DNA of 35,006 bases, from positions 1 to 35,006 of the IMG/VR virus record IMGVR_UViG_2778261448_000009. One strand, given 5' to 3'. The notes under the pieces were generated by a model that ran no database searches, was not told where the DNA came from, and saw only the letters and a program-made list of their open reading frames with translations. This stretch comes from a virus (lineage: Duplodnaviria > Heunggongvirae > Uroviricota > Caudoviricetes). A program made the position numbers and the translations under genes. Positions 1 to 32,245 of this stretch are shown here, one piece after another; the first letter of the stretch is position 1; every line of letters begins with the position of its first letter.

Positions 1-942
1 TTATTGGCAGTAAGAAAAGTTAGTACCATACATTTCATCATGAAGCATTGCAGCATTGCGTTTCTGTTCTTCTTCCTCGTCTTCTACATCACTAGAGAAA
101 TAGGATTTTCCCTTGAAGGAACGAAGCAATTGCAGTGCAGCCATCGGATCACGCATCACATCGATTTTCACTTCTACTTCATCATTTGCGGCCTCATCAG
201 CCGCGTTTTCAACTACTGCTACCGGAGCAACTTCTTTAGCTTTCAGTTCTTCAATCTCAGATTTCTGTGCTTCAATAATCTGGTCTTTTTCTTCCAGTGC
301 AGCTTTCAGTTCTGCGATCTGTGCTTCCAGTGCAGCAAAGCGATCTTCAACAACAGGAGAAACAGCATTAACCTGTGCTTCCAGTTCCAGAAATGCTTCG
401 CAAGATTCAATACGTTCTTTCTCTTCACCTTCATAAGCAACCAGTTCTACAACTTCTTTTTCGGTAGCGTGGCTGTTAAAGAATACAGCAAAGTAAGGAT
501 TGCCGGATTTAGTGAAGTTCAGTTTAGCTTTTCCGGTAACTTCTTTACGACGACCGAAGGTGATCTGGCAATCAGCGGTATCCTGAAAATCCATGTTAGG
601 AGCGGAAACGATAGCAGTATCACCAGCAATAACCAGGTGGAACAGTTCAGAAGAGTTCTTAACGGTGAAAGTAACGATGTGGTCTACTGCAACGTCTTTA
701 GCAGGTTTAACGCGGTCGATTGCTTTACGAATGCCGTTAGGCAGTTTACCGTCAACACCAAAGCCAGCCGCGATCAGTGCTTCACGATGTGCTTTAAAGC
801 CAGCGAAAGCGGATTTCTGCTGTGCAAAGGAAACATGAGCAACAACTTTCGGCTGAATCTTCTTGTTTGCTTCGGTTCCAAATTTGATAACTGCTTTAGC
901 GTTGGTTACTTCGTTAGTGAAAAAGTTAGCGGAAAATAACAT
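1..942 (-). CDS. hypothetical protein, 313 aa: N-terminal globular region, central coiled-coil (AALEAQIAELKAALEEKDQIIEAQKSEIEELKAK), acidic C-terminal stretch
   Basis: Complete minus-strand ORF; revcomp shows AGGAG 8 nt before the ATG at 942-940 and a TAA stop at 3-1. The plus-strand ORF 4-939 is low-complexity antisense. Function not recognised. Confidence 0.6.
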   Translation of the reverse strand: MLFSANFFTNEVTNAKAVIKFGTEANKKIQPKVVAHVSFAQQKSAFAGFKAHREALIAAGFGVDGKLPNGIRKAIDRVKPAKDVAVDHIVTFTVKNSSELFHLVIAGDTAIVSAPNMDFQDTADCQITFGRRKEVTGKAKLNFTKSGNPYFAVFFNSHATEKEVVELVAYEGEEKERIESCEAFLELEAQVNAVSPVVEDRFAALEAQIAELKAALEEKDQIIEAQKSEIEELKAKEVAPVAVVENAADEAANDEVEVKIDVMRDPMAALQLLRSFKGKSYFSSDVEDEEEEQKRNAAMLHDEMYGTNFSYCQ

Positions 943-1933: not shown

Positions 1934-2064
1934 CGGGGAATCGGGCGTGCATAGATATTATATAACACATTCGCTACGCTCATGTGTAAAACCAAAAACA
2001 ACAAATAACCAAAAAGATATTAGGAGGGCTTTGCCCGACTGCGCGAAGCGCCAACCAATTGCTT

Positions 2065-2304
2065 CTAGTAACAACTAATTTAAACTAGATGATACTAGAT
2101 GGTCTTAGAAGGAATTAACTAGTTTGCTCGCTCGCTTCGCTCACTCTCAAACGTCTGCGACGCCACTGCGTGGCATCGAGAATCACTTCTGAAAGGATTT
2201 TCTTGAAAGGGATTTTAAACTAGTTACTAACTGATTCTAGAAAGATAGTAATAATCACTTTGAAGATAATAGTAGTTAACTGGTTACTAGATGATTCTAG
2301 ATCA
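2065..2304. repeat. CTAG-rich repeat cluster (8 CTAG in about 240 bp) with direct repeats ACTAGATGAT and TGATTCTAGA, interleaved with GC-rich dyads
   Basis: CTAG at 2065, 2085, 2095, 2119, 2220, 2237, 2287 and 2297; ACTAGATGAT at 2084 and 2286; TGATTCTAGA at 2232 and 2292; GCGAAGCG (2045) inverted as CGCTTCGC (2133); GCCACtgcGTGGC at about 2162-2174. Confidence 0.75.
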
Positions 2305-2330
2305 CTTTAATGATCATGAAAGGTATTGGT

Positions 2331-2359
2331 ATCCCTTCGGGATTGCAACCTTCGGTTGC
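2331..2359 (+). other. two adjacent stem-loops with UUCG tetraloops (candidate RNA structural element in the leader of the 2562 gene)
   Basis: ATCCC-TTCG-GGGAT at 2331-2343 and GCAACC-TTCG-GGTTGC at 2345-2359; no U-run follows, so it is not a classical terminator. Confidence 0.45.
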
Positions 2360-2561
2360 TAAATTGCTTCCGGATTATTATTTCTCCAAAAGAAAGATTC
2401 TTATATTCTAAAGATACTTCTTCGTTTTGATGATGATTTAATCAAAATCTATGAAGGAGGCGAAGCCGACTGAATACCAATTCCTTTCAAATTAGACAAA
2501 AATTTCTCGTTATAAATAATAGTGAACTTACTTTGATTCACTTTTTTAGAGGATTTCCACT

Positions 2562-3011
2562 ATGATCAATACTAAAACTCCTTTCATTCTTCTGGGTCTG
2601 AACCATGATGATAATCTGGCTATGATGCATGTTTTCGCTAATCGTGGTTATAACATCATTCGTCATTCCGAAGACTCCAATTTCTCAACTGCTTTCTATG
2701 CTCTTAAACGTAATGGTCGCCCTACGGTGATCGTAGACTGCTTTACTGATGAAGGTCGTGAACAATACAACAACATTCCGGCAATTATTGTTCGTGATGA
2801 CCTGCCGTTTGATGTTCGTGAATATGACGTTGATTTAGGCTCTTACTATGGGATCGCCGATCTTGACCAGATTATGGCTGATTATGGTAAACAACCCGCT
2901 CAGGAAGCCCCAGAACACGATGAACAAGACGAAGATGACGACTACACACCAATCTGTTTCTCTTCTCACGGTGGCTTCTACGGTTACGATGAAGGCTTAG
3001 ATATGCTGTAA
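2562..3011 (+). CDS. hypothetical strongly acidic protein, 149 aa (candidate early anti-restriction or DNA-mimic protein, speculative)
   Basis: GAGG-type RBS before the ATG; I count about 29 D/E against 10 K/R, with a C-terminal EAPEHDEQDEDDDY cluster; first ORF downstream of the 1.3 kb noncoding region. Confidence 0.6.
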   Translation: MINTKTPFILLGLNHDDNLAMMHVFANRGYNIIRHSEDSNFSTAFYALKRNGRPTVIVDCFTDEGREQYNNIPAIIVRDDLPFDVREYDVDLGSYYGIADLDQIMADYGKQPAQEAPEHDEQDEDDDYTPICFSSHGGFYGYDEGLDML

Positions 3012-3046
3012 TTTAGGTCAACCCTTTGGCGTCTTGTCAAGGGGTA

Positions 3047-3075
3047 TTGACAAAATTTTCTGACTTTTTTATGAT
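3047..3075 (+). promoter_or_regulatory. sigma70-like promoter: TTGACA, 17-bp spacer, TATGAT
   Basis: Exact -35 hexamer at 3047-3052 and near-consensus -10 at 3070-3075; further TTGACA/TTGTCA boxes at 3034 and 3084; lies upstream of the 3132 gene. Confidence 0.5.
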
Positions 3076-3131
3076 TATCGCACTTGACAACTTTGAACCT
3101 ATTTGACCTAGATTTGTAAAGAGGATGTAAC

Positions 3132-3464
3132 ATGAAAGAATTTACCATCACTAAATCCCTGTATGACTGGACTGTTAAAATCTCCGGCAAAACCGTTTCT
3201 GTAAGCCCTAGCCATGTAGAAAATGATTGGGGCGTATCCCGTGAAACTATCTCCCGTAGTATGCATGTTCCGTTTGATCTGATGTCCTTAACTGGTATTC
3301 ATGCAATGCTGGAAGTTCGCGAACAATTCGAAGCTGGTAATCACAATGCGACTCCAGTTAACAATCACCTTCTTACTAATGAAGAACGTGAAATCATCGA
3401 AAACTGGCGTTATGAATATGCGATTCCTTATTATGAAGAAGATCAGGTAGAAATCGATTGGTAA
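3132..3464 (+). CDS. hypothetical acidic protein, 110 aa, with an HTH-like segment (GVSRETISRSM); weak candidate for a small terminase or regulator
   Basis: RBS AGAGGA before the ATG; TAA stop; no recognisable family by eye. Confidence 0.5.
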   Translation: MKEFTITKSLYDWTVKISGKTVSVSPSHVENDWGVSRETISRSMHVPFDLMSLTGIHAMLEVREQFEAGNHNATPVNNHLLTNEEREIIENWRYEYAIPYYEEDQVEIDW

Positions 3465-3565
3465 TAAATTTCTATTATAAATAAAATTGTTCCGCGCGCC
3501 GTTGGCGTGTGGACAGTTAAAAACAGGAGAATCAATCACTAAACCGTTTAAGGGGAATTTTTACT

Positions 3566-4414
3566 ATGAATACTGTTACTACTATGAATACTGCTGTTAA
3601 AACTGCTTCCGTGTCTCTGGTTGTTGATAACACCAAACCGCTGACCATGTCTACTTTGCAGATCGCGGAATTAACCGGAAAGAATCATAAAGATGTTATG
3701 CGTGATTTTCGTAATATGGTTGATTCGCTTGAAAAGGGTAGCAAACTGGTCGGAGGAGATGAGCGCAATTTTGCGCCCATCGGTTTTTATAAAGAAACGA
3801 CTTATAAAGATTCTCTGAATCGTAATAAACCGATGTATGAACTGGATGAAGATCTCTGTAATACTCTGGTTATGGGATACGATGCACCGCTTCGCTTCAA
3901 AATTGCTAAAGAATGGCGTTTGATGAAAGAAGGTAAAGCTAATGTTCCGGTTAATCCATATGAACACTTTGAAGAAACAGACTGGATCGAACTGGCGTTA
4001 AAGAAAACTCGCGAAAACAAACAACTGATTGAACTTCATGTTCGCAAATCCGTAGATAGCCATTCTATGACACGTCTGTTAGGCGCTAAAAAGGGCGCTA
4101 CGAAGGTTAAAGAAGCACTGACGGCCTTGCGTACTGCTGGCTACATTGAGCGCGTCTATGATGAAAATAACAAGCCGTGTGGGTATGTTGCTAATGACTC
4201 TTCTCTGTCTTTCTGCCGCATGAATGCTCACTACCAACTTGAGTTTACTGTTGATGTTCTTCCTGTGTTGGTTGAATTGGGCATTTTGGAAGAAGAACAG
4301 AAAGCAACTCTTAAACTACCGCAGCCAAATAACACTATTCTGATTCAAAACAAAGCTGCTAAACAGATTCGTGAATCAGGTAACGTAATTTCCCTTGTTG
4401 ATTTTGGGATCTGA
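3566..4414 (+). CDS. Rha-family phage regulatory protein, 282 aa
   Basis: N-terminal segment LTMSTLQIAELTGKNHKDVMRDFRNM matches the signature I recall for the Rha (Phage_pRha) family; RBS AAGGGG before the ATG; TGA stop. Confidence 0.65.
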   Translation: MNTVTTMNTAVKTASVSLVVDNTKPLTMSTLQIAELTGKNHKDVMRDFRNMVDSLEKGSKLVGGDERNFAPIGFYKETTYKDSLNRNKPMYELDEDLCNTLVMGYDAPLRFKIAKEWRLMKEGKANVPVNPYEHFEETDWIELALKKTRENKQLIELHVRKSVDSHSMTRLLGAKKGATKVKEALTALRTAGYIERVYDENNKPCGYVANDSSLSFCRMNAHYQLEFTVDVLPVLVELGILEEEQKATLKLPQPNNTILIQNKAAKQIRESGNVISLVDFGI

Positions 4415-4420
4415 TTAATC

Positions 4421-4451
4421 GCCCGGCGCATAATTGCGCTGGGCTTTTTTG
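4421..4451 (+). terminator. rho-independent terminator after the Rha gene
   Basis: Stem GCCCGGCGC/GCGCTGGGC with one mismatch, loop ATAATT, then TTTTTT. Confidence 0.6.
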
Positions 4452-4462
4452 TATCTGATGCA

Positions 4463-4568
4463 TCCAGATTTGGATTTCTAGAAAGAATCAACCACTTAGA
4501 TAGATACGCTGAACTTTAAGCACATCCCCTCAGTTTTGAGGGCATCTATAGATCAGTCCAAATCTGGA
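4463..4568. repeat. perfect 12-bp inverted repeats TCCAGATTTGGA / TCCAAATCTGGA enclosing an 82-bp segment with an internal hairpin
   Basis: Arms at 4463-4474 and 4557-4568; internal hairpin CCCTCA-GTTT-TGAGGG at about 4528-4543; the element lies between two convergent terminators. Confidence 0.7.
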
Positions 4569-4610
4569 CTCAACTTAGAAATGAGCGCAGTTTTGCGCCG
4601 ATTGTTTTAC

Positions 4611-4638
4611 ATACAAAAAAGCCACTCCGAAGAGTGGC
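4611..4638 (-). terminator. rho-independent terminator for the minus-strand genes, UUCG loop
   Basis: Minus strand reads GCCACTC-TTCG-GAGTGGC followed by TTTTTT. Confidence 0.65.
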
Positions 4639-4653
4639 AAAGAGAATCAAAAC

Positions 4654-4887
4654 TCAAAAACCTGTTGCTTCTACGATCTGACCATCACCGATCTGAACAT
4701 AGAATTTAATGTCTAACTTCTTCATATTCTTATAGAATTGGGCGATTGAGATCCCATGTTCACTAAGAATCTGTTCTTTCGCTTCCTTACCACGATCCGC
4801 TGTATAGTAAGCGTAGGCAATATCAGCCATCTGTTCAGCGTTAAAACGGCAAGGACGACCGCGAGTAGCTTTAGTAGTCATAGTCAT
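4654..4887 (-). CDS. small putative DNA-binding protein, 77 aa
   Basis: Complete ORF ending in TGA; N-terminal TRGRPCRF and an HTH-like ISIAQFYKNMKKLDI segment. Confidence 0.5.
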   Translation of the reverse strand: MTMTTKATRGRPCRFNAEQMADIAYAYYTADRGKEAKEQILSEHGISIAQFYKNMKKLDIKFYVQIGDGQIVEATGF

Positions 4888-4915
4888 TTCTCCAAATTAA
4901 AGTGAATGTTCACCT

Positions 4916-5521
4916 TTATTTAGAGGACTTACATTTTATCGGAAAAAGTTCTCCATCGTCAATACTCATAAAGAACTCTACCTTAATCCCGTACTTCCTC
5001 AGCCGTGAATAATATGTACCCCGACTAATATCAACCTTGCGAAGCACTTCGAAGAACCCTGTAGGATCGTTGTAATAGTGGCTATATTTCACGTTAGCGA
5101 GTTCAACGAATAGTTCCCTTGTATCACCATAGCCTTTCTTGAAAGCCTCGTTACGATAGCGTGTAATTGCGTGATTCAATCTCTTCTGTTTCAACACTTC
5201 TCGGATCGGTGTCCACTGCAAACGATAGATAGGACCGTCATCCACTCGATAATAACGCTTGATATCAAAATCAAACCAATCTCGGACTCTCCGAAACTCT
5301 GTATGTGATGTTCTATGCTTCTTAAAGAAGTTGTGAACGTCTGTATAACCATTATCGCGGTAAAACTCTATTAAAATCTCTTTCGCTTCCTCACGACTAA
5401 AGCCAGATGTTGTGTAGTCGGTTTTTAAATGCTTATGCTTAACTGGCAAACGATATTCATGATCGGTACAACAAGACAAGGCTAATTCTACTTCATCTCT
5501 TTGTTGCTGATTAATTAGCAT
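4916..5521 (-). CDS. hypothetical basic protein, 201 aa, with HTH-like segments
   Basis: Complete ORF with TAA stop; segments such as [14 protein letters not shown] resemble the HTH of the 60-aa protein at 1057-1239; function unknown. Confidence 0.5.
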
Positions 5522-5606
5522 ACAACCCCCTTTAATTAATACCCGTATTTATCAAAATATCAACAATTTAATAAATACCTTCATATTTCGTAATGAGGGT
5601 AATTAC

Positions 5607-7511
5607 ATGAAACTGATTTCAAATAAGGCAAAATTAAAAAAGATTCTCAAAAATGCAGCCAAATATATTACGCCACCGCCTAAGCTCCTTCCTTCTGAAT
5701 GGTGCGAAGCGAATCTAACGCTAGTCGATGGTCCTCGTGCTGGGGATAAAGTTAAATTACTGTCATTTCAGAAAGGCATGATTGATGCTCCTTTCCTTGA
5801 GAAGAAAAAGAAGTACGTTTTTTGTACGAGTGCACAGATCGGAAAGACGACCATCATGTCAGGGATTATGTTTAACCAGATGGCAAACGATCCGTGTAAT
5901 ATCATTATCGGGCAAAGTACCGCTAAAGAAGTGGCTATGTACTTGAATACTAAGATCCGTCCTTCTATTGAAGCATGTCCGGCATTACAGGAAGTGGTAA
6001 CAGATAAGAATGATCGTAATGCGGTAAACAACAATAACCAGATTCAGCTAAAAACAAACCATTTCCTTTACATGGTTTCTTTGACCAGTCCTTCAAGTTT
6101 GCGCGGGCGTACTGCCAAGTTAGGGATTGTAGACGAATGCGACGCAGCAACAATCACCGAAGAAGGTTGCCCGGTGGCACTAACTGCAAACCGTTTAACT
6201 ACCTTTGGTGATGAAGCTCGATTGATTGTTTCTAGTACCCCGACCAATAAGCTGGGAATTATTAACCAGCAATGGTTATCAAGCGATATGCGTATGTTTT
6301 TTGTTCCGTGTCCTCATTGCGGGGAACACCAGGTGATCGAGTGGGAAAACGTACAGTTTGAATGGCGTAACATTGATGGTAAGAACTTACCCGATCCTGA
6401 TACCGCTCGTTATATTTGCCCCCACTGTAAGAACGCATGGACAGAAGGAGAGCGGATCAGGGCGGTGGCACAAGGAGAGTGGAGAGCAACCCGTGAAAGT
6501 GAAGTAGCAGGATTCTGGATCAGCCGTCTGTATTCACCTTTCAGCACGATCCGCGCTTGTGTGGTTGATTTTAGTCATGCGTGGCAATCCTTTGATTTAC
6601 AATCATTTTATAACACCGTGTTAGGCAAGGTATACGACGATCAGGACACGGCAGTAGAAGCAAATGAACTGGAACAACTCAAAACAGATGTTTCTATCGA
6701 GAATATCCCTGATGACGTGATTTTCTTGTGTGCGGGTACTGACCAGCAATTAGATCGCGCAGAAACTACAATCATGGGCGTGGCAAAGGATAAGATTTAT
6801 ATTCTGGATCATCGCAGCTTTTACGATCATAACTGTGAACGATATGAATCCCCTGTATGGGATAGATTAATCAACTTCCATAAAACCAAATTTACTACTG
6901 TATCGGGTGATCGTGTTCCTATGCTCGCCAGCTTCCTTGATACATCGAACGGTCGATTCACTCAAGCCGGATACCGTATTTGCGGCAAGTGGAAGAACTT
7001 ACACGCTATCAAAGGTAGTTCTGCTGGTAACGCTCCGATCATTCCGGTTAAACCTACCCGCACAGGTGGTCATGAATTGCTTATGTTGGGTGTTAACGTG
7101 GGTAAAACTGCATTTCGTGAAATGTTGGCTAGGAACCTGAAAGATAATCCTCATATTAGCTTAGAAATATCAGACACCGTTCCTGATGATTATTTCGATC
7201 AGCTTTTAAGTGAATCTGTTAAGCGTACTACTACTGGCGTGAGATGGGTAAAGAACCCAGGCGTTAGGAACGAGGCGCTCGACTGCGCCGTGTATGCTAC
7301 AGCGGCTTCTCGCTACGTTCTTTCAAAAATGTCATGGGATAAACTCATTGCAATGAAAGACAGCTTAAACCGTGTTGTCGAAGAACCCGTAAAAGCTCCT
7401 AAATCGCAATCTAACGAGCAAATCGAAGAAACTAAGCCAATCACACGACCACAACGTCAAAACATCGCCAGACGTCCAAATAGAGGACGTAGCTGGATAA
7501 CATCGTTCTAA
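5607..7511 (+). CDS. terminase large subunit, lambda GpA family, 634 aa
   Basis: Motifs shared with my recollection of lambda gpA: CPHCGEHQV (lambda ACPHCGEEQ), [14 protein letters not shown] (lambda YSPFTT), [10 protein letters not shown] (lambda GIDSQLDRYE), [15 protein letters not shown] (lambda RRNEALDCFVYALAA). RBS GAGGG before the ATG. Confidence 0.85.
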
Positions 7512-7517
7512 TCATTC

Positions 7518-7535
7518 GCCGTCCTTCGGGGCGGC
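7518..7535 (+). other. intercistronic stem-loop with UUCG tetraloop
   Basis: GCCGTCC-TTCG-GGGCGGC directly after the terminase stop; no U-run follows. Confidence 0.45.
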
Positions 7536-7583
7536 TTACTCCTAAATATTGTTAATCCAATAACAATTAAATAAGGGGTAATT

Positions 7584-8078
7584 ATGAGTTTAGAACTAAT
7601 TCCCTTAGTAATTCGTAAAGGCGAAAAAATCACGCTGGCGAATGAAGAGGGTGTAACAATTCAGGTAGGAAATAGTAAAGGTATCATTTATCAGGTTGAT
7701 GATTCTCCGGCTAATCACGAGATTAAAACCTTAGATTTTGCCGAGGGTAAATATACCATCGTAACCACGTTGGAAGATGAACTGGTATCAATGCAGGAAT
7801 TAACTGTTTTGCCAGTATTCGCCAAACAATCCAAAAAAGAATATCTGCGGGAAACTATCGCCTTAATCGAGCAAGTTATTTTCGCCCGTTTATCTGGGGA
7901 CGAAGCCGCATTATCTCAAATGACCGTGAAAGGGAATACTTTCGCTTATGAATCATTAGGTGTTCTCCAGCAATTGAAGACTGATTATGAACGTCAGTTA
8001 TCTAAATTAATTCAAGCCGAACGACGTAAACAGGGAATTAGCCCGATTAAAAATATCAAATTACGTCTTACGCGATAA
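7584..8078 (+). CDS. hypothetical protein, 164 aa, at the position lambda gpW occupies between terminase and portal
   Basis: RBS AAGGGGTAATT before the ATG; assignment by position only. Confidence 0.45.
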   Translation: MSLELIPLVIRKGEKITLANEEGVTIQVGNSKGIIYQVDDSPANHEIKTLDFAEGKYTIVTTLEDELVSMQELTVLPVFAKQSKKEYLRETIALIEQVIFARLSGDEAALSQMTVKGNTFAYESLGVLQQLKTDYERQLSKLIQAERRKQGISPIKNIKLRLTR

Positions 8079-8088
8079 GGGGTAAATC

Positions 8089-9600
8089 ATGTTTAATCTT
8101 TTTCGACGCAAAAAGGCGGTAGAAACTCCAGTTAAAACTAATCACCGCCAGCAACAACAAAAAATCTTTATCGACAAACAAGTAGAAAAATTCCAGAAAG
8201 ATTTGTCTAAGCGTTCTTTGGGCTTAGTCGGTGATCGTATTGATGGATCACTTCAACAAGACACCATTACAGGAACCTTCAATAAGGCTCTCAAATCAAA
8301 CGGTAAGCGCCTTTATGATCAGGGTCGTACTCTGGCCTTAAACACTTCCGTAGGCAGTCGCTACACGCAATACATCACCGATATGGTGGTAGGTACTGGC
8401 CTAGATCCGAAGCCATCAATCGTTAAATCAAATGGCAAACTTGATAGCGCACTGAATAAGCAGATCGAGAATGCTTTCTGGAAGTGGGCGCAGAACGCTA
8501 AACGCTTCTCTCGCAATGGTCGCTTTAACTTCCGTGAACTGCTGGTAATGGCTGAACGTGAGCGCGTTATGGGTGGTGAGTGCTTCATCGTTTTAACCAA
8601 AGAAAACAATGAGTTAAATGTTTCCATCCTGTCTGCTGATAAGTGCGACTGGTCGCTAAACCGTGAAGTAAGCAAAGAACGTGCTATCTATCAGGGGATC
8701 GAGTATGACGTAGAAACAATGAAGCCAGTAGCATACTGGTTTCGTAAAATCAACCTACTGACTCAGACTTACACAGGTGATAACTATCGCGTAGATGCAT
8801 CGCAAGTATGCCATTATTATCAACCACTTACAGCCGAATCCCTGCGTGGTGTGACTGACTTCCTGCCAGTGATCAAGGATATCGCACATCAAGACGCATT
8901 CCGCGAAACTGCAATTATCCAGAAACGTATTGCGGCTAGTTCTATGGGCTTTATCGAACGTCCGAAAGATTCTGGTGACGATTTTGATACTGGTGAAGAG
9001 GATGAACAATATCAAGCGCCGGAAGTAGTACAGGATTTTGCACCTGGTACTATTCAGGAATTACCGGAAGGGGCAACGATCAAGAGCATCCAGGCGACGC
9101 AAAGCGGTGATGACTTCAATTCCTTTAACGATGCGATGTTTACTAGCGTATCAATGGGCTTAGGCGTGTTTAAACAGGGCTTAACTGGCGATACTAGCCA
9201 AATAAATTACAGCGCTGCACGCTACGGCGAATTACTTCAAAGAACGCGCGTTAAAGCACTGCAAAACAAATTGATTGAAACAGTGGTGTCGCCCATTTTC
9301 GAAGCATATCTACGCCATTATTCCGCGCGTGGTATTGTTCCGATTCGTATTACTGCAATTCCACATATTATCGATAATACAACTATTATTCGTCCGCGTT
9401 TTGAATCCGTCGATCCATTTAAAGACGTAAGCGCCGAGATTGCTTTAATTGATAAAGGACTTAAATCACGTACTGCCGTTATTCTTGAACGTGGTGATGA
9501 TCCTGAAAAAGTATTCTCAGAGATTCAAGCCGAAAAGAGCGCACTAAATATTATCGTTAATGGCGAGGGTGAAGAAAAAAATTCCCCAGCCGATCCCTAA
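8089..9600 (+). CDS. portal protein, 503 aa
   Basis: Position immediately after terminase and before the protease-capsid gene; size typical of lambda-family portals; acidic C-terminal tail. Confidence 0.7.
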   Translation: MFNLFRRKKAVETPVKTNHRQQQQKIFIDKQVEKFQKDLSKRSLGLVGDRIDGSLQQDTITGTFNKALKSNGKRLYDQGRTLALNTSVGSRYTQYITDMVVGTGLDPKPSIVKSNGKLDSALNKQIENAFWKWAQNAKRFSRNGRFNFRELLVMAERERVMGGECFIVLTKENNELNVSILSADKCDWSLNREVSKERAIYQGIEYDVETMKPVAYWFRKINLLTQTYTGDNYRVDASQVCHYYQPLTAESLRGVTDFLPVIKDIAHQDAFRETAIIQKRIAASSMGFIERPKDSGDDFDTGEEDEQYQAPEVVQDFAPGTIQELPEGATIKSIQATQSGDDFNSFNDAMFTSVSMGLGVFKQGLTGDTSQINYSAARYGELLQRTRVKALQNKLIETVVSPIFEAYLRHYSARGIVPIRITAIPHIIDNTTIIRPRFESVDPFKDVSAEIALIDKGLKSRTAVILERGDDPEKVFSEIQAEKSALNIIVNGEGEEKNSPADP

Positions 9601-9608
9601 TAACCAAC

Positions 9609-9625
9609 GGGGGCGCAATGCCCCC
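9609..9625 (+). other. intercistronic stem-loop between portal and capsid genes
   Basis: GGGGGC-GCAAT-GCCCCC; no U-run follows. Confidence 0.4.
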
Positions 9626-9645: not shown

Positions 9646-11658
9646 ATGCTTAAATTTCGCCGCGATCTTAACGGTTACGGTGGAGTTATTAACGAAGGGC
9701 ATAACGATCAATACGAGTTTGAAATTGCTTTCTCAAGTACACAGCCTTATCAGCGCCAATTTTGGGATGAGCAAAATCAAGAAATGGTGGTATTAGATGA
9801 AATTCTGGTACATACACCGGAAGCGGTTGATCTGTCTCGTCTGAATAATAACGCTCCGTTGCTGTTCAATCATAATTTCGATAATCATATTGGTGTCGTT
9901 TGTAACGCTCGAATCGATGCGGATAACGTAGGTCGTGCTCTGGTTAGATTCTCTAAGCATGGCACTTTGGCTAATGATATTCGCAATAAAGTCATTGAAG
10001 GTACGATGGAAAAAATTTCTGTCGGTTATGACATTAAAGAATATCACATCGACTACACCAAAGGACAACTGATTGTTACTAAGTGGGCACCCTATGAACT
10101 CTCATTTGTCACCGTTCCCGCAGACGATACGGTCGGTTTAAATCGCTCTCTAAATACTATCACAGTTAATTTGGAGGCTAAACGCGATATGACTAAAGAA
10201 CAAATTGAAGAAATCAAAGAAGAACAAGAATCCGCTCAGGTTGAAGAAACTCCGGTAGAAGAAAATAAAGAACCGGAAGTTGAAGAAACTCAAGAGCGCC
10301 AAGTTGAAGAGAATAAAGAAGATGAAAATCTCGAAGACGGAAAAGACGCTAAACATCCTGAAAGTGTTGATGATGATAGTTCAACTGTTCGGGAAACAGA
10401 AGAAGTAAAAGAAGAACGTGAAGCTGCTCCGGTTGAAGAAGAAAAAATCGAGGAAGTGGCTGAACGTTCCGAAGAAGACGAATTAGAAATTCGCGAAATT
10501 GCACGCGAGTTAAATATTAACGAAGACGATGAAGAATTTAAACGCGCATTGGCAAATAAAGAAATTACGCCGGAAGCATTCCGCACTAAGGCACTAAATA
10601 AAATCGCTACTGCTCAACGTAACAACGAACAACAAATTAAGGACTCTAAAATGGAAAAAACTTTTGACCTGAACAACGTAATTCGCTCTCTGGTAGATGG
10701 TGCTGCTCTGGGCGCTCATGAAGCTGAATATTCCGCTATGGCTGCTGGTGCTGCAATGCAGCGTGGTCGTGCTGCTCGCGGTGGCTCTGTATTCGTTCCG
10801 GCTGCTGCTATGCGTGCTGCTTCTGCTGGTAACACCAAAGCCGACCTGACCGCTATCACTGACGAAAAACTGATGACTGAATCCTACATCGAAATGCTGA
10901 TGCCGGAATCTGTTCTGGGTCGTCTGGGTGTGACTGTTTACAGTGGCTTGAACTCCCCGACCGCTATTCCAAAAATGACTAAATCCAGCGTTGACGCTTT
11001 CGGCTTCGTTGATGAAAACGGTGCTGCACCGGAAAGCAAAGCTGAATTTGCGAACGTGAAACTGTCTCCGAAAACTTTTGCTGGTGGCAACCCGATCAGC
11101 CGTCAGTCGCTGAAAACCGTTCCGGGCATCGCTACCCTGATCACTGATCACATTAACAAAGCTGTTCGCATCAAACTGGAACAACTGATTCTGTCTGATA
11201 AAGCTAACGACCGTGGTCCGGCTGGTCTGGTTAAGCAACTGGTAGACGCTAGCCGCGTTACCAAGAAAGCTGCTTTCTCTTACAAAGACTTCCTGAAAGA
11301 AATTGCAGCACTGACCGACGCTGGCGTTCCTGCTCAGGCGATCAAGTTTGCGATGAGCGGTGCAACTGCTTCTGAACTGGAATCTACCCTGAAAGATAAC
11401 GGCGTTTCCGGTTATATCATCGAAAACGGCAAACTGGCTGGTTACGAAGTAGTTACTTCTGGCGTTATCCCGGCAGACCACATCGTTCTGGGTGACTTCT
11501 CCGGTATTACTATCGGTGAGTGGGGAGGTCTGGAACTCGACATGGATCTAACTACATATAGGGATCGTGGTGCGGTAGTGCCTCGTATCTTTGTAGATTT
11601 GGACTACGTTGTAGCACAGCCGGAAGCTCTGAAAGTTCTTCACATCTCCGCTGAATGA
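9646..11658 (+). CDS. prohead protease (HK97 gp4-like) - acidic scaffold - major capsid protein, single 670-aa ORF
   Basis: N-terminal LLFNHNFDNHIG, ISVGY and YELSFVTVPA resemble HK97 protease motifs ALFNHD, SFAF and FDVSPVTYPA as I recall them. Residues about 185-300 are E-rich and repetitive. The C-terminal 330 aa have capsid-like composition. TGA stop. Confidence 0.7.
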   Translation: MLKFRRDLNGYGGVINEGHNDQYEFEIAFSSTQPYQRQFWDEQNQEMVVLDEILVHTPEAVDLSRLNNNAPLLFNHNFDNHIGVVCNARIDADNVGRALVRFSKHGTLANDIRNKVIEGTMEKISVGYDIKEYHIDYTKGQLIVTKWAPYELSFVTVPADDTVGLNRSLNTITVNLEAKRDMTKEQIEEIKEEQESAQVEETPVEENKEPEVEETQERQVEENKEDENLEDGKDAKHPESVDDDSSTVRETEEVKEEREAAPVEEEKIEEVAERSEEDELEIREIARELNINEDDEEFKRALANKEITPEAFRTKALNKIATAQRNNEQQIKDSKMEKTFDLNNVIRSLVDGAALGAHEAEYSAMAAGAAMQRGRAARGGSVFVPAAAMRAASAGNTKADLTAITDEKLMTESYIEMLMPESVLGRLGVTVYSGLNSPTAIPKMTKSSVDAFGFVDENGAAPESKAEFANVKLSPKTFAGGNPISRQSLKTVPGIATLITDHINKAVRIKLEQLILSDKANDRGPAGLVKQLVDASRVTKKAAFSYKDFLKEIAALTDAGVPAQAIKFAMSGATASELESTLKDNGVSGYIIENGKLAGYEVVTSGVIPADHIVLGDFSGITIGEWGGLELDMDLTTYRDRGAVVPRIFVDLDYVVAQPEALKVLHISAE

Positions 11659-11745
11659 AATAACGAAGAATTGCCGGAAGAAATTCCGGTAGTTACGGCG
11701 AAAGCCACAGCTAAAAAGGTGGGACGTCCACCGAAAGCAAAATAA
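11659..11745 (+). other. in-frame 28-codon extension after the capsid TGA stop (candidate readthrough product NNEELPEEIPVVTAKATAKKVGRPPKAK)
   Basis: No in-frame stop until TAA at 11743-11745; conserved with the extension after the tail-tube gene, including synonymous codon differences. Confidence 0.5.
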
Positions 11746-11750
11746 TAATT

Positions 11751-11777
11751 AGCCCTGCCTAACGGTGGGGCTTTTTT
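11751..11777 (+). terminator. rho-independent terminator
   Basis: AGCCCTGCC-TAAC-GGTGGGGCT then TTTTTT; near-identical to the terminator at 17621. Confidence 0.75.
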
Positions 11778-13379: not shown

Positions 13380-13410
13380 GGGAGGTTAACGCCTCCCTTA
13401 TTCCTGTTTT
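13380..13410 (+). terminator. terminator-like hairpin
   Basis: GGGAGG-TTAACG-CCTCCC followed by a U-rich tract. Confidence 0.5.
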
Positions 13411-16972: not shown

Positions 16973-16991
16973 CGGGGGACTAGTTCCCCCG
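16973..16991 (+). terminator. hairpin after the fibre gene, weak terminator
   Basis: CGGGGGA-CTAGT-TCCCCCG; the downstream U-run is poor. Confidence 0.4.
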
Positions 16992-17615: not shown

Positions 17616-17620
17616 TTATA

Positions 17621-17648
17621 AGCCCTGCCTTAATGGTGGGGCTTTTTT
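17621..17648 (+). terminator. rho-independent terminator
   Basis: AGCCCTGCC-TTAAT-GGTGGGGCT then TTTTTT. Confidence 0.75.
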
Positions 17649-26789: not shown

Positions 26790-26830
26790 AATCCCGCTTA
26801 ATTCTTTTGAGTTAGGCGGGATTATTTTTA
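26790..26830 (+). terminator. rho-independent terminator after the J-like gene
   Basis: AATCCCGC...GCGGGATT stem with an extended loop, then a U-rich tract. Confidence 0.6.
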
Positions 26831-26876
26831 TCTAAATAATTTTGCCATTAAACTATATAAAAATATCGGGGGCGTA

Positions 26877-27346: not shown

Positions 27347-28030
27347 ATGGCAACCAGTACCAATAAACGAAACGCTCTAAGGACTAAGAAAGCGTTACGG
27401 CAATGGTCTGAAAAGGCAACCGATACATTCGAAAGGGCGATAGGGGAAGGGGCGATCTTTGCTGCTCGTGCACTACAGAAGAAGATTAACAAGAATGTTG
27501 ATAGACCTACTCGCTGGACTCAGCAAGCTGTAGGTAATACCAACTACAAGAACCGATCAGGGACGAGACACCAAATCTTCATCAAGGGCGCAAGGGATAA
27601 GGACAAGAAGATCGGCAGTCAGGATGACTATCTGAAACACTATTTCGATGGTGGCAAAATCAATAAGCTAGTGCCAATTGCCAACGGTAAGGTCTTAGAC
27701 GCCCACGGGAACATTAAGGCCATCAAAGGCGGTAAGATGATGCGTAACATCGAAAACGGCAACTTCATCAAGGTAGAGAACAAGGAAGGGACTTTTATCA
27801 TGAAGAAGTACAAGCCTAAGAAATCCCGAACCAAACGCGCTAGGAATGGATCGGCGGTGGCAAAACGTCGCTTAGAGAAACGCATCCAGAAACAGAGTAA
27901 GCGAATTGTTGCCGTTAAGTCGGATAAAATTTCTACTCGTTATTCGACGCTAGGATCGTGGGAAAGCAACGAGGAAATGATGCTTGAAAACATCAATAAG
28001 CACATTAAATCGCGCATGAGATACGTTTAA
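27347..28030 (+). CDS. hypothetical very basic protein, 227 aa
   Basis: Lys/Arg-rich throughout; ATG 1 nt after the upstream stop; function not recognised. Confidence 0.5.
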   Translation: MATSTNKRNALRTKKALRQWSEKATDTFERAIGEGAIFAARALQKKINKNVDRPTRWTQQAVGNTNYKNRSGTRHQIFIKGARDKDKKIGSQDDYLKHYFDGGKINKLVPIANGKVLDAHGNIKAIKGGKMMRNIENGNFIKVENKEGTFIMKKYKPKKSRTKRARNGSAVAKRRLEKRIQKQSKRIVAVKSDKISTRYSTLGSWESNEEMMLENINKHIKSRMRYV

Positions 28031-28068
28031 TCCATAAATACCCTCATAGAATCTTATGGGGGTATAAC

Positions 28069-28810: not shown

Positions 28811-30301
28811 TTATATAGCAATTGTTTTAGTTGCATAGCTGAACTTGTCGGTTAGATAATAGCGGATTCTCTCAAGTGCATGTTTTACCGCATAATTTTT
28901 ATGCTTGACTTTTCCGTTACGACCGAATATACACAGATGATCTATAAGATCCCAGACCGTTGCAATATCCTTAGAACCATGTTTACGCAATGCACGACCG
29001 ATACTCTGACGAACGATAGTTGATTCCTTCACGGGATGACCGAAAATAACATGGTGCAAATTCTTAATTGAAACACCAGTAGAGAAAACACCATAGGAAG
29101 CAACACAAATGATCCCTGTTTCCCCTTCCGCTAATTTCTTAAATTCATCACGTTCTTCTGTCTTAACTCCACCGTCAATATAATAAACCTTGTCGTGTAC
29201 CTTCTGTAACGCGTCATACATAAGTTTTCCGTGCTTAGTATTGCGGAACATCAGGAATACGTTTTCGCCCTTCTTAGCGAGTTTTAGCGCCAAATTACAA
29301 GCAAACTTATTACGTCGTGGGTTAGACGTAATATACTTGATCTCTTCCGCATATTCTCTACCCTTAACCGCGCTACATTCCTCATCGGTATAACGAAGGA
29401 AAAGACAGTTGATTTTCAGTTTCGTCACTTGACCTTCTTCCATCAGGCGGTCAATACTCACGATCTTAGAAATATCACCGAAAAGACCGACATACTGTAA
29501 AAGATGGCATTTTGATTCTTTAGGGGAACCAGTCATGCCGATTTTAAACTGGCAATGATTCATTCCGTTGATGATATTGGTAATATTTTTGGCACTAGCC
29601 TTATGTGATTCATCAACTATCAACATTCCATATTGTCGGAACCATTCAGGAGGCATCTTGCAAGCTGATTGCCATGTTGAAACAGTGATTAGCCTATCTC
29701 CCGGATGTTTCCCGCTACCACTCATCATTGTATGAATTGCTTCATAAGGGAATAACCGATAATCGATGAAATCATCCCTCATTTGAACCACTAGCGATGT
29801 AGTAGGGACAATGATTAACACTTTTCCGGTGTAGTTCTCTAAGTACCAACGAGACAGCATACAAGCAATCAATGACTTACCCGCACTGGTAGGAAGAACC
29901 AGCATTCTACGGCGATTATGAATACCCTGAAAGACTGCCTCCCTTTGATACCAGTAAGGATTGATTTTATTGGAACCGGAATACACTTCTAGGGAATCAA
30001 TCCATTCATTAATCGCGTCTTTGGTTACATCTTCCTTCTCAAGCAATCGCGGGTCAATCCAGACTGAATAGCCCATATTTTTAACGAAGACACCCAACGT
30101 TTTTAATAGTCCAATTGGTAGGGTATTTTCATGCGTAAACAGTCTTATTCGTCCATCCCAGCCGGAATACTTGTAGCGGGGGCTAAACCTAGCCCCTTCA
30201 ACCTCAAACGAGAAATAATCCCTTAATTCCATTCCGATAGAAGGAGAGCAATCAACCTTAACGAAACTGTAATCTTGAAAATGAATTTTAATATCTTGCA
30301 T
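28811..30301 (-). CDS. uvsW: UvsW-like SF2 DNA helicase (T4 UvsW homolog), about 496 aa
   Basis: Near-collinear with T4 UvsW as I recall it: MQDIKIHFQDYSFVKVDC..., PYWYQREAVFQGIHNRRRMLVLPTSAGKS (Walker A), LIIVPTTSL, MLIVDESH (motif II), YIDGGV, ICVASYGVFSTGVSIKNLHHV, GRALRKHGSKDIATVWDLID. I place the start at the ATG at 30301-30299, overlapping the upstream stop as TAATG. Confidence 0.85.
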   Translation of the reverse strand: MQDIKIHFQDYSFVKVDCSPSIGMELRDYFSFEVEGARFSPRYKYSGWDGRIRLFTHENTLPIGLLKTLGVFVKNMGYSVWIDPRLLEKEDVTKDAINEWIDSLEVYSGSNKINPYWYQREAVFQGIHNRRRMLVLPTSAGKSLIACMLSRWYLENYTGKVLIIVPTTSLVVQMRDDFIDYRLFPYEAIHTMMSGSGKHPGDRLITVSTWQSACKMPPEWFRQYGMLIVDESHKASAKNITNIINGMNHCQFKIGMTGSPKESKCHLLQYVGLFGDISKIVSIDRLMEEGQVTKLKINCLFLRYTDEECSAVKGREYAEEIKYITSNPRRNKFACNLALKLAKKGENVFLMFRNTKHGKLMYDALQKVHDKVYYIDGGVKTEERDEFKKLAEGETGIICVASYGVFSTGVSIKNLHHVIFGHPVKESTIVRQSIGRALRKHGSKDIATVWDLIDHLCIFGRNGKVKHKNYAVKHALERIRYYLTDKFSYATKTIAI

Positions 30302-30870
30302 TAGTTCCACTCCACACTTGCAATATTCTTTATATTGTTTAGTGATTTATTGCAGTAGTGGAATGTTTCAGTTTTGCCGTATTCAATCCCGCCTATACCC
30401 ACATCCAGTAATCTCTTTATTGCTCTTTCAGTGGCTAAAGCATGTTTCATTGATGGCATTTCACCAGCAAAGACAATATCAAAGTTATGACCGGGATTGC
30501 GTACACCCAGATTAATGCGTCGCTTGATGATTGACTTTGTAACACCAAATTTACCAATATCCCCTGATTTCATTACATAGAGATAAGGCACACCCGCTTT
30601 ATATTGAAAGTAATCACTTTTGAGACATGCACAGCGTTTACCTTCATTAAGCAGGTTGGTAGCTGATTTGTCGGCTCTATTGCCGCATCGGGTACATGTA
30701 AGAGCAATTCTTGAATGAAGCCCTTTAAACTCACCCAGAAAGCCATGAAAGACTAACGGTAAGTCCTTCTCTTTGATGTGAGTCAGAATGCGTTGTTCTA
30801 ATGCCGATGGAGTTACAGCACGGGAGGATTTAGGAGTAAAAACAATATCTTTAGCCATTACTGGAATCAT
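30301..30870 (-). CDS. T5orf172-domain (GIY-YIG-like) protein with N-terminal zinc-ribbon-like CxxC pairs, 189 aa
   Basis: PYLYVMKSGDIGKFGVTKSIIKRRINLG fits the T5orf172 signature as I recall it; CTRCGN...CAC cysteine pairs; GAGG before the ATG; translationally coupled to the helicase gene. Confidence 0.55.
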   Translation of the reverse strand: MIPVMAKDIVFTPKSSRAVTPSALEQRILTHIKEKDLPLVFHGFLGEFKGLHSRIALTCTRCGNRADKSATNLLNEGKRCACLKSDYFQYKAGVPYLYVMKSGDIGKFGVTKSIIKRRINLGVRNPGHNFDIVFAGEMPSMKHALATERAIKRLLDVGIGGIEYGKTETFHYCNKSLNNIKNIASVEWN

Positions 30871-32211: not shown

Positions 32212-32245
32212 AAAAAGGGGTACATCTGTACCCCTTAACTGTTTT
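32212..32245. terminator. bidirectional terminator between convergent genes
   Basis: GGGGTAC-ATCT-GTACCCC flanked by an A-run upstream and a T-rich tract downstream. Confidence 0.6.

Follow-up and report, generated by a model that had tools for sequence, protein, structure and literature searches.

Hairpins that form stable stems and are followed by no U-run stand beside or between the genes of a 35,006-nucleotide (nt) stretch of tailed-phage DNA (IMG/VR record IMGVR_UViG_2778261448_000009, positions 1 to 35,006; hereafter the window). Do they form one class of RNA element? The original prediction read them so: twin UUCG hairpins in the leader of the first early gene (2331-2359), a UUCG hairpin directly behind the terminase stop (7518-7535) and a GC hairpin between the portal and capsid genes (9609-9625) were taken for RNA stability or processing elements. 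Every hairpin was recovered at its position by sequence and by folding, and the T counts past the stems bore out that the three plus-strand elements have no U-run. In our reading, which we hold to be about 50% probable, the hairpins are of three kinds: (i) a terminator hairpin that lacks its tail, behind the terminase gene; (ii) conserved hairpins in front of the capsid and major tail genes; and (iii) palindromes of the DNA mini-hairpin type, to which the twins belong. The minus-strand hairpin at 4621-4638 is an ordinary canonical intrinsic terminator.

The window is an Escherichia coli prophage inserted in ycdX, with 41.7% G+C. It was compared with its E. coli clade (20 IMG/VR loci, TerL identity 80-99%, plus an annotated locus of E. 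coli) and with outer relatives, syntenic Salmonella and Providencia prophages from a portal protein search (62-66% portal identity; six loci fetched). The roles proposed below are deduced from sequences, folds, conservation, covariation, motif statistics and layout.

Stable hairpins are concentrated between genes

Folds of -10 kcal/mol or below were found in 7.1% of intergenic vs. 0.54% of coding 30-nt windows (13-fold enrichment), and 23 of 63 plus-strand energy peaks fell within the intergenic 10% of the sequence. CTTCGG motifs with complementary arms were intergenic in four of four cases. Since stem-bearing CTTCGG motifs and stable folds are concentrated in intergenic DNA, chance is excluded for the hairpin set as a whole. 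Seven intergenic hairpins with no U-run add to those of the original prediction (3021-3045, 3491-3513, 11669-11694, 13380-13397, 16973-16991, 28038-28065 and 32215-32236; Table 1). The hairpin at 7518 and most other sense-strand operon hairpins hold one to three G·U pairs and are weaker or absent on the antisense strand, those at 9609 and 16973 being exceptions.

The twin palindromes belong to a cluster of C-GNA-G mini-hairpins

The pair at 2331-2359 did not fold as UUCG hairpins. Both the minimum free energy and the centroid structures gave stems of 5 and 6 base pairs (bp) with UUC triloops, whereas the C(UUCG)G register leaves two or three pairs, and in three relatives (L028, L029 and L032) C or U follows the G, so that C-G closure is impossible. 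The twins belong to a set of at least six small palindromes, all perfect and centred on 3 nt. As RNA they are unexceptional (z = -1.5; 19 of 200 shuffles folded equally well). With DNA parameters, which hold no GNA bonus and are silent on extrusion, the pair gave z = -3.4 on the plus and -4.5 on the minus strand.

Block 2318-2480 is conserved in nearly all relatives, and the sequence to its left is replaced. Both twins were present in seven of seven lineages, abutting and with a 3-nt centre, on wholly different stems. Because MAFFT left the hairpins out of register, pairs were counted from the loop centres across lineages. The first and second stems (H1 + H2) read ATCCC + GCAACC, TGC + GACGCTC, TCCC + GCCCC, GCGC + ATTCGC, TCCAC + GGATGC and TCCGC + GGATGC, which gives six different H1 and five different H2 stems for the seven lineages; a compensatory CCAC/GTGG to CCGC/GCGG change distinguishes the H1 stems of two of them. 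The ~60 twin stem pairs are all Watson-Crick, with no G·U pair, whereas most operon hairpins and terminators hold one to three.

On the plus strand the twins have a C-G pair closing a TTC, TAC or TGC loop, and the opposite strand reads C-GAA-G, C-GTA-G or C-GCA-G. Across seven lineages, 30 of the 38 perfect triloop palindromes in the noncoding region were of the C-GNA-G class, vs. 3 of 62 elsewhere in the same loci. The window has six C-GNA-G motifs with stems of at least 4 bp, five of which lie within 2041-2359, one of them with GNA on the plus strand (2041-2051) and four with GNA on the minus strand (2152-2162, 2162-2174, 2331-2343 and 2345-2359). The strand that carries GNA switches because the mini-hairpins sit in the arms of two dyads. 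For the hairpin at 2457-2467 coding sequence was ruled out as an explanation, its loop indels not being multiples of three. GNA is the sole triloop class that forms the extraordinarily stable DNA mini-hairpins, with a melting temperature of 70-76°C for GCGNAGC, and natural GNA mini-hairpins occur in the complementary-strand origin of phage G4, in ssiA of the RSF1010 oriV and in the hairpin promoters of phage N4 (review PMC13037366).

The cluster lies beside iterons and between divergent promoter-like motifs

The layout of an ssi-type origin (RSF1010/G4) combines iterons and an A/T-rich stretch with hairpins on opposite strands, and all of these were found at 1746-2467: an A-rich stretch (~1985-2025) lies to the right of the iterons, and the hairpins of 2026-2467 are placed farther right in the two dyads. 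The iteron array with its A-rich stretch resembles in layout a replication origin or a terminase-binding array. GC skew around the noncoding region was uninformative.

Promoter-like sites for gene 2562 were found only at 2493-2525, and no sigma-70-like promoter was found to the left of the twins. Since the twins sit upstream of the best promoter-like motif, their placement in the leader of the first early gene is unsupported. The two copies of this motif (TATAAATAATAGTGA) are 1.2 kb apart, each ~40-55 nt before its divergent gene, and each is directly followed by a hairpin and T-run (GAGCGGTTAACGCTC+T6 and AGTGAA..TTCACT+T6); TATAAATAATAGTGA could be a promoter specific to the phage, with an attenuator close behind it. 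Weaker copies are found in front of other early genes (3478-3489; 4911-4922, minus strand; 26833-26844). The short motifs CTAAATA and TAAATAAT had no overall enrichment, and the longer 12-15-nt motif alone is convincing.

Two other features mark this region. On the minus strand, 1661-1689 is a leftward promoter that matches the sigma-70 consensus perfectly (TTGACA-17-TATAAT, TG upstream); the next hairpin with a T-run is ~370 nt and the next start codon ~415 nt away, and no open reading frame (ORF) of at least 50 amino acids (aa) lies on that strand between. This promoter may drive an untranslated RNA. CTAG-centred repeats or palindromes of operator-like look, ACTAGATGAT(A/T)CTAGA, occur at 2083-2109, 2218-2241 and 2278-2301, and the relatives have CTAG-centred CTTTCTAGAAAG and CCTTCTAGAAGG, of similar look, just upstream of the twins.

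On these sequence features, a DNA-level role of the twin cluster in an origin or regulatory region appears more likely than one as an RNA leader. The C-GNA-G mini-hairpins would act as DNA hairpins, extruded or single-stranded, and in the 1.2 kb between the divergent promoter-like motifs they might work like the RSF1010 ssi signals or the phage G4 origin. We tentatively propose that 2026-2467 could be a hairpin-DNA control region of a temperate lambda-like siphophage of Enterobacterales, with strand-specific C-GNA-G priming (ssi-like) or hairpin-promoter signals.

The hairpin behind the terminase gene has lost a U-tract

In 7518-7535 (GCCGUCC-UUCG-GGGCGGC) the predicted UUCG hairpin is a true one: a 4-nt UUCG loop closed by C-G stands in register on a 7-bp stem that includes one G·U pair (free energy, ΔG, -14.1 kcal/mol; z = -3.8). 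The stem is unchanged in 20 E. coli-clade loci, while the six preceding bases and the following bases vary (TTACTCC, CTCCCCC, ATCCC), and a T-tract after it is missing in 21 of 21 loci of the clade. At the same place Salmonella and Providencia relatives carry the same stem, AGCCGUCC-UUCG or UUAG-GGGCGGCU, followed by a T-tract (TTTCTTTT, TTTTCTTTT, TTTTTAT or TTTTCTAT), that is, a canonical intrinsic terminator. A U-tract was scored as at least 5 T in the 8 nt directly 3′ of the stem; the window hairpin has 4 (TTACTCCT, with UU alone adjoining the stem), and its homologues in L027-L033 have 6-7. In the Salmonella and Providencia relatives a terminator cassette, AGCCGTCC-TTCG-GGGCGGCT, stands at three intergenic positions in each genome, the post-terminase site and two others.

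The T-tract of the Salmonella and Providencia counterparts makes the state with no U-tract a derived one. As judged from these comparisons, 7518-7535 is the terminator hairpin of a conserved UUCG intrinsic terminator, the U-tail of which was lost in the E. coli clade. It would no longer terminate efficiently; in the late mRNA it most likely now blocks 3′-to-5′ exonucleases or serves pausing or folding.

Hairpins and terminators bracket the capsid and major tail genes

The hairpin predicted between the portal and capsid genes is present (GGGGGC-GCAAU-GCCCCC; ΔG -13.9 kcal/mol, z = -2.1), but the GNRA-type label is wrong: its GCAAU loop has 5 nt, and relatives have UAAAC or UAAUAC. A true GAAA loop was seen only in the Salmonella counterparts of the 16973 hairpin. 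The GGGGGC/GCCCCC stem is identical in all lineages (three genera) despite ~63% portal protein identity, with diverging flanks; the loop differs by lineage (GCAAT, TAAAC, TAATAC), and a T-tract was found in no lineage. In the window 4 T fall in the 8 nt past the stem (AATTAATT), and AAUUAAUU follows. The hairpins at 7518, 9609 and 16973 have the G-C-rich stem of an intrinsic terminator (6-7 bp) and lack its U-tract. The GCAAU pentaloop recurs in relatives upstream of capsid and major tail genes on differing stems (L027 ~18980, L029 ~18870, L030 ~14560), and could be a protein-binding loop.

At 16973-16991 the position of the hairpin is kept after a common sequence, AATAATAAAAGT, and the stems of the window and its relatives differ: CGGGGGA/TCCCCCG, AACGGGT/GCCCGTT, ACCGGA/TCCGGT and GCGGGGC/GCTCCGC, the last with a G·U pair. 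Such stem turnover is genuine structural covariation in the sense strand. The stem of the terminator at 11751-11772 covaries with Salmonella AGCCACUCC/GGGGUGGCU through G·U intermediates. Terminator hairpins are also reused as cassettes, one stem (AGCCCTGCC/GGTGGGGCT) ending both the capsid and the tail gene.

The capsid fusion and the major tail protein are the two most abundant virion proteins. Upstream of both the 9609 and the 16973 hairpin lies an AU-rich single-stranded run, the usual context of RNase E cuts. This spacer would be cut, or decay would arrive from upstream; the hairpin would then form a protected end, and the capsid and major tail cistrons, each with a hairpin at the 5′ end and a terminator hairpin at the 3′ end, would remain as stable mRNA units. 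A role of 7518 and 9609 in stability or processing at transcript ends is plausible, because both lie on the sense strand of a long operon and are conserved in E. coli, Salmonella and Providencia relatives. To this extent the original prediction is in keeping with the comparisons; for the twins, which have no G·U pair and belong to a C-GNA-G dyad cluster beside iterons, an RNA role is unsupported.

RNase III sites were ruled out, since stems of 6-7 bp contrast with the ~20 bp or more of near-continuous double-stranded RNA that is needed; only the hairpin at 13380 lies on a longer, interrupted stem (~17 bp). A lambda-type nut site (boxA + boxB), in which a boxA consensus adjoins a 5-bp hairpin that has a GNRA-like pentaloop, was also rejected: boxA-like matches were at chance level with none near the hairpins, and the loops have 3 nt. 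No arginine-rich N-like motif was found in the translations of the first genes. Rfam 15 gave no match at the gathering score, and the sole sub-threshold match (RsaJ, 20.7 vs. 100 bits) is attributed to chance.

Other hairpins, prophage genes and an extended capsid frame

The terminator at 4621-4638, as predicted, has a UUCG loop: on the minus strand GCCACUC-UUCG-GAGUGGC is followed by U6, with C(UUCG)G in register on a 7-bp stem (ΔG -13.0 kcal/mol, z = -5.0). In L011 the hairpin at 3021-3045 shows a compensatory CCC/GGG to CAC/GTG change. At the site of 3491-3513 relatives have an unrelated hairpin (TTCCGG..CCGGAA) with variable loops, and at position 13380 they have canonical terminators. A 12-bp hairpin at 28038-28065 starts 7 nt past the stop of gene 27347-28030 and holds in its 3′ arm the Shine-Dalgarno sequence (SD) GGGGG of gene 28069; it is a candidate for coupling or occluding translation. 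As a terminator the hairpin at 985-1016 fits the plus strand better, by its G·U pairs and T-run.

On an NCBI contig that bears the exact TerL protein, the E. coli csg-ymd-ycdXYZ neighbourhood flanks the window, and the insertion site in ycdX adjoins the curli genes. The element was found in 58 of 5426 complete E. coli genomes (~1%), with ycdX interrupted in one annotated example, and the phage family occurs also in many Salmonella. A G+C content of 41.7% is low for an E. coli chromosome. The prophage encodes a serine recombinase, a UvsW-like helicase (28811-30310) and, among its tail genes, a tape measure protein; most of the early proteins had no family match. Megablast of 12 kb against phage and plasmid collections gave no close record, and no matches came from scans of species-representative genomes or from viral contigs scanned with the portals of the Salmonella and Providencia relatives.

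Three minus-strand genes, 1057-1239 (60 aa), 4654-4887 (77 aa) and 4916-5521 (201 aa, at its C-terminus), share the motif (S/G)T(F/Y)..L(K/R)KY(D/G)I(K/R)V. No named phage family was matched by these proteins, and the 60-aa protein alone had a sub-threshold match to Pfam HTH_Tnp_1. Long ORFs run on both strands across the same 940 bases at 1-942. In relatives 143 of 197 substitutions over this segment fall at third codon positions of the minus-strand ORF, which is for this reason taken as the gene; the plus-strand ORF 4..939 was ruled out by this codon-position test.

The capsid ORF ends at UGA (11656-11658), and the frame stays open for 28-44 more codons up to the terminator across loci, in the window for 30 codons (11656-11749, NNEELPEEIPVVTAKATAKKVGRPPKAK). 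The whole E. coli clade (21 of 21 loci) has the extension, as do one of the Salmonella loci (L027) and the Providencia locus; the other Salmonella lineages examined (L029, L030, L032) do not. Its indels are multiples of three, an acidic-then-basic peptide is conserved, and in each case a hairpin lies 10-25 nt past the UGA (11669-11694 in the window). By its sequence this looks like programmed UGA read-through giving a minor extended capsid protein; a limited full-text literature search found no report of capsid read-through of such kind in a double-stranded DNA phage.

Table 1. Positions of hairpins, repeats, motifs and selected genes in the window.
Feature	Position	Strand	Remarks
Iterons, six direct copies of TTTTGCCCCTGAA	1746-1880		inverted copy 1924-1939; in the 1.3-kb noncoding region
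Mini-hairpins GGGC-TTT-GCCC + GCGC-GAA-GCGC	2026-2051		GNA loop of the second on plus strand; just right of A-rich stretch; relatives have twin GTA/GAA hairpins
Second dyad	2037-2050 and 2133-2146 (arms)
Abutting mini-hairpins CGTC-TGC-GACG + GCCAC-TGC-GTGGC	2152-2174		C-GCA-G on minus strand; minus strand can form 9 bp over 2158-2178
Large imperfect inverted repeat	2317-2489		arms 2317-2353 and 2453-2489, 76% complementary; contains the twins
First twin, perfect palindrome ATCCC-TTC-GGGAT	2331-2343		C-GAA-G on minus strand
Second twin, perfect palindrome GCAACC-TTC-GGTTGC	2345-2359		C-GAA-G on minus strand
Mini-hairpin GGC-GAA-GCC	2459-2467		in right arm of large dyad; relatives GGGC-TTTA-GCCC and similar
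Promoter-like motif TATAAATAATAGTGA, 15 nt	2511-2525	+	before gene 2562; perfect inverted copy 1295-1309 before divergent 60-aa gene
11-bp hairpin, no U-run, three G·U pairs	3021-3045	+	after gene 2562-3011; abuts -35 of TTGACA-17-TATGAT promoter (3047-3075)
Hairpin, no U-run	3491-3513	+	directly past motif TAAATAAAATTG (3478-3489), upstream of Rha gene
Canonical terminator	4421-4444	+	after Rha-family gene; convergent with 4621-4638
UUCG-loop intrinsic terminator	4621-4638	-	after minus-strand 77-aa gene; U6 tail
TerL gene (gpA ATPase + nuclease)	5607-7511		lambda-like head gene
C(UUCG)G hairpin	7518-7535	+	starts 6 nt past TerL stop; no U-tract, tail UUACUCCU
Candidate anti-SD UUACUCCU	7536-7543	+	stands in place of the lost tail; predicted pairing with SD AAGGGGUAA (7573-7581) of gene 7584
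Head-tail joining-like gene	7584-8078
Lambda-family portal gene	8089-9600
G5C/GC5 hairpin, GCAAU pentaloop	9609-9625	+	8 nt past portal stop, 20 nt before capsid ATG
Prohead protease-capsid fusion gene	9646-11658
Canonical terminator closing capsid gene	11751-11772	+	AGCCCUGCC-UAAC-GGUGGGGCU + U5
Hairpin GGGAGGU-UAAC-GCCUCCC	13380-13397	+	weak U-rich tail, 5 T in 8 nt past stem
Hairpin CGGGGGA-CUAGU-UCCCCCG	16973-16991	+	30 nt upstream of major tail gene 17022; 3 T in 8 nt past stem
Major tail protein gene	17022-17495		matches major tail protein families; tail genes follow head genes
Canonical terminator closing major tail gene	17620-17644	+	same stem as 11751-11772
Terminator	26790-26823		stem + T-run

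Discussion

The reading of the original prediction, in which all the hairpins are RNA stability or processing elements and the twins stand in the 5′ leader of the first rightward gene, is unlikely as a whole. In its favour, the twins stand 200 nt before gene 2562 and on the sense strand of that gene, the conserved block 2318-2480 runs on as far as the gene, operator-like CTAG-centred palindromes are found just upstream, and conserved structure despite stem turnover is expected of structured RNA too. Set against this are the absence of promoter-like sites upstream of the twins, the best candidates lying downstream; the ~60 stem pairs with no G·U, unlike most operon hairpins; and the unremarkable RNA stability. 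No reason at the RNA level is known for the strict C-TNC-G loop rule, its complement being a known DNA mini-hairpin motif, and the layout is mirror-image, in large dyads by iterons. Nor would double-stranded operators for a dimeric phage regulator, to which we give only a slender chance, account well for the twins and their neighbours. That they are perfectly palindromic and stand in a regulatory region, among other repeats and promoter-like motifs, would suit such operators, but H1 differs from H2 within one phage, close relatives have wholly different stems next to a conserved flanking motif, AAGGTATTGGTTA, and the sole constants, the closing C-G pair and an asymmetric G-N-A centre, would be unreadable by a symmetric dimer.

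For the intercistronic hairpins a mainly translational function, in which an anti-SD holds the SD of the next gene for occlusion or for coupling to the upstream cistron, is quite improbable. A YCCCU element 3′ of the 7518 hairpin is predicted to pair with the SD GGGG of gene 7584 in seven of seven lineages (P = 0.98-1.0), and the SD of gene 28069 is inside a hairpin; shuffled upstream sequence, however, pairs the gene 7584 SD almost equally (mean 0.8), SD pairing in the portal-capsid gap is no better than in shuffles, and the 9609 hairpin itself makes no contact with the SD. A stepwise decrease of transcription along the operon at weak terminators or pause sites is more doubtful still. The homology of 7518 to a canonical terminator, the canonical terminators of relatives at position 13380 and the 5 T in 8 nt kept there point in that direction. 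Transcript release by E. coli RNA polymerase at intrinsic terminators requires a U-tract, however, whereas 7518 is followed by UU only and 9609 by AAUUAAUU, and a terminator right before the most abundant structural gene would be counter-productive.

Several points weigh against our own reading of three kinds. No initiator or primase family was matched among the neighbouring proteins (PHROGs, Pfam, NCBIfam and PDB sequence searches), and an activator-dependent promoter may lie upstream of the twins. By complementarity, a C-UNC-G triloop in plus-strand RNA fits the sequence data equally. The loop in L014 is AGG, which is not GNA, and the strand favoured by a wobble extension is the minus one in the window (2158-2178) and the plus one in L027. 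Covariation gives no support to the stems of 7518 and 9609, which are invariant; a constraint on the sequence itself could explain their conservation, as could, for 7518, the copying of a repeated cassette.

No new mechanism is called for: UUCG hairpins, protective stem-loops with no U-run and capsid genes bracketed by a 5′ hairpin and a terminator are known kinds. Tuerk et al. in 1988 (PNAS 85:1364) reportedly described C(UUCG)G hairpins in intercistronic regions of phage T4 and in E. coli terminator loops. The hairpins at 7518-7535 and 4621-4638 likewise have an exact C(UUCG)G on a G+C-rich stem right after a cistron; unlike those hairpins, the twins miss the tetraloop register, and 7518 is a terminator without its U-tract and not a free-standing stability element. 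Five elements (4421-4444, 4621-4638 on the minus strand, 11751-11772, 17620-17644 and 26790-26823) fit intrinsic terminators with stem and T-run, while 7518, 9609 and 16973 have no U-tract. In E. coli, stable stem-loops with no U-run shield transcript 3′ ends from PNPase and RNase II (Dar and Sorek, 2018, PMC6061677). The present hairpins are similarly stable, have no U-rich sequence after them and lie just past a coding region; unlike the published stem-loops, which end Rho-terminated units, they lie inside a long translated phage operon.

The ompA leader, and the phage T7 gene 10 leader with the T-phi terminator, are 5′ stem-loop stabilizers that bracket a highly expressed gene. Here, too, the start codons of the most abundant structural genes have a G+C-rich hairpin 20-30 nt before them, and a strong terminator hairpin closes these genes. 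The 5′ end of T7 gene 10 mRNA is made by a promoter or by RNase III; unlike in T7, the 6-7-bp stems are too short for RNase III. With the mini-hairpins of G4, RSF1010 (ssiA CCGAAGG) and N4 the cluster shares C-G closure, a G-N-A triloop, short G+C stems and a noncoding region with iterons and an A/T-rich stretch. RSF1010 ssiA and ssiB are hairpins on opposite strands, which matches the opposite-strand dyad arms of the cluster. Unlike in those systems, no cognate primase, initiator or hairpin-reading polymerase was recognized in the prophage, and the function is a predicted one; unlike in N4, where loops are GGA or GAA, GTA and GCA loops are common.

These data suggest that (i) the sister prophages offer a natural comparison of the same terminator hairpin with and without its U-tract; (ii) the bracketing of capsid and tail genes by a 5′ hairpin and a 3′ terminator would be a testable design rule; and (iii) the C-GNA-G cluster in dyads by iterons may be a new instance, in a temperate siphophage family, of a rare kind. 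The hairpin-DNA device has so far been documented only for single-stranded DNA phages, the IncQ plasmid RSF1010 and phage N4. If the mini-hairpins do act as DNA, rare structure-based DNA signals would be extended to an uncharacterized temperate phage family, and the origin or control region of these phages would be located.

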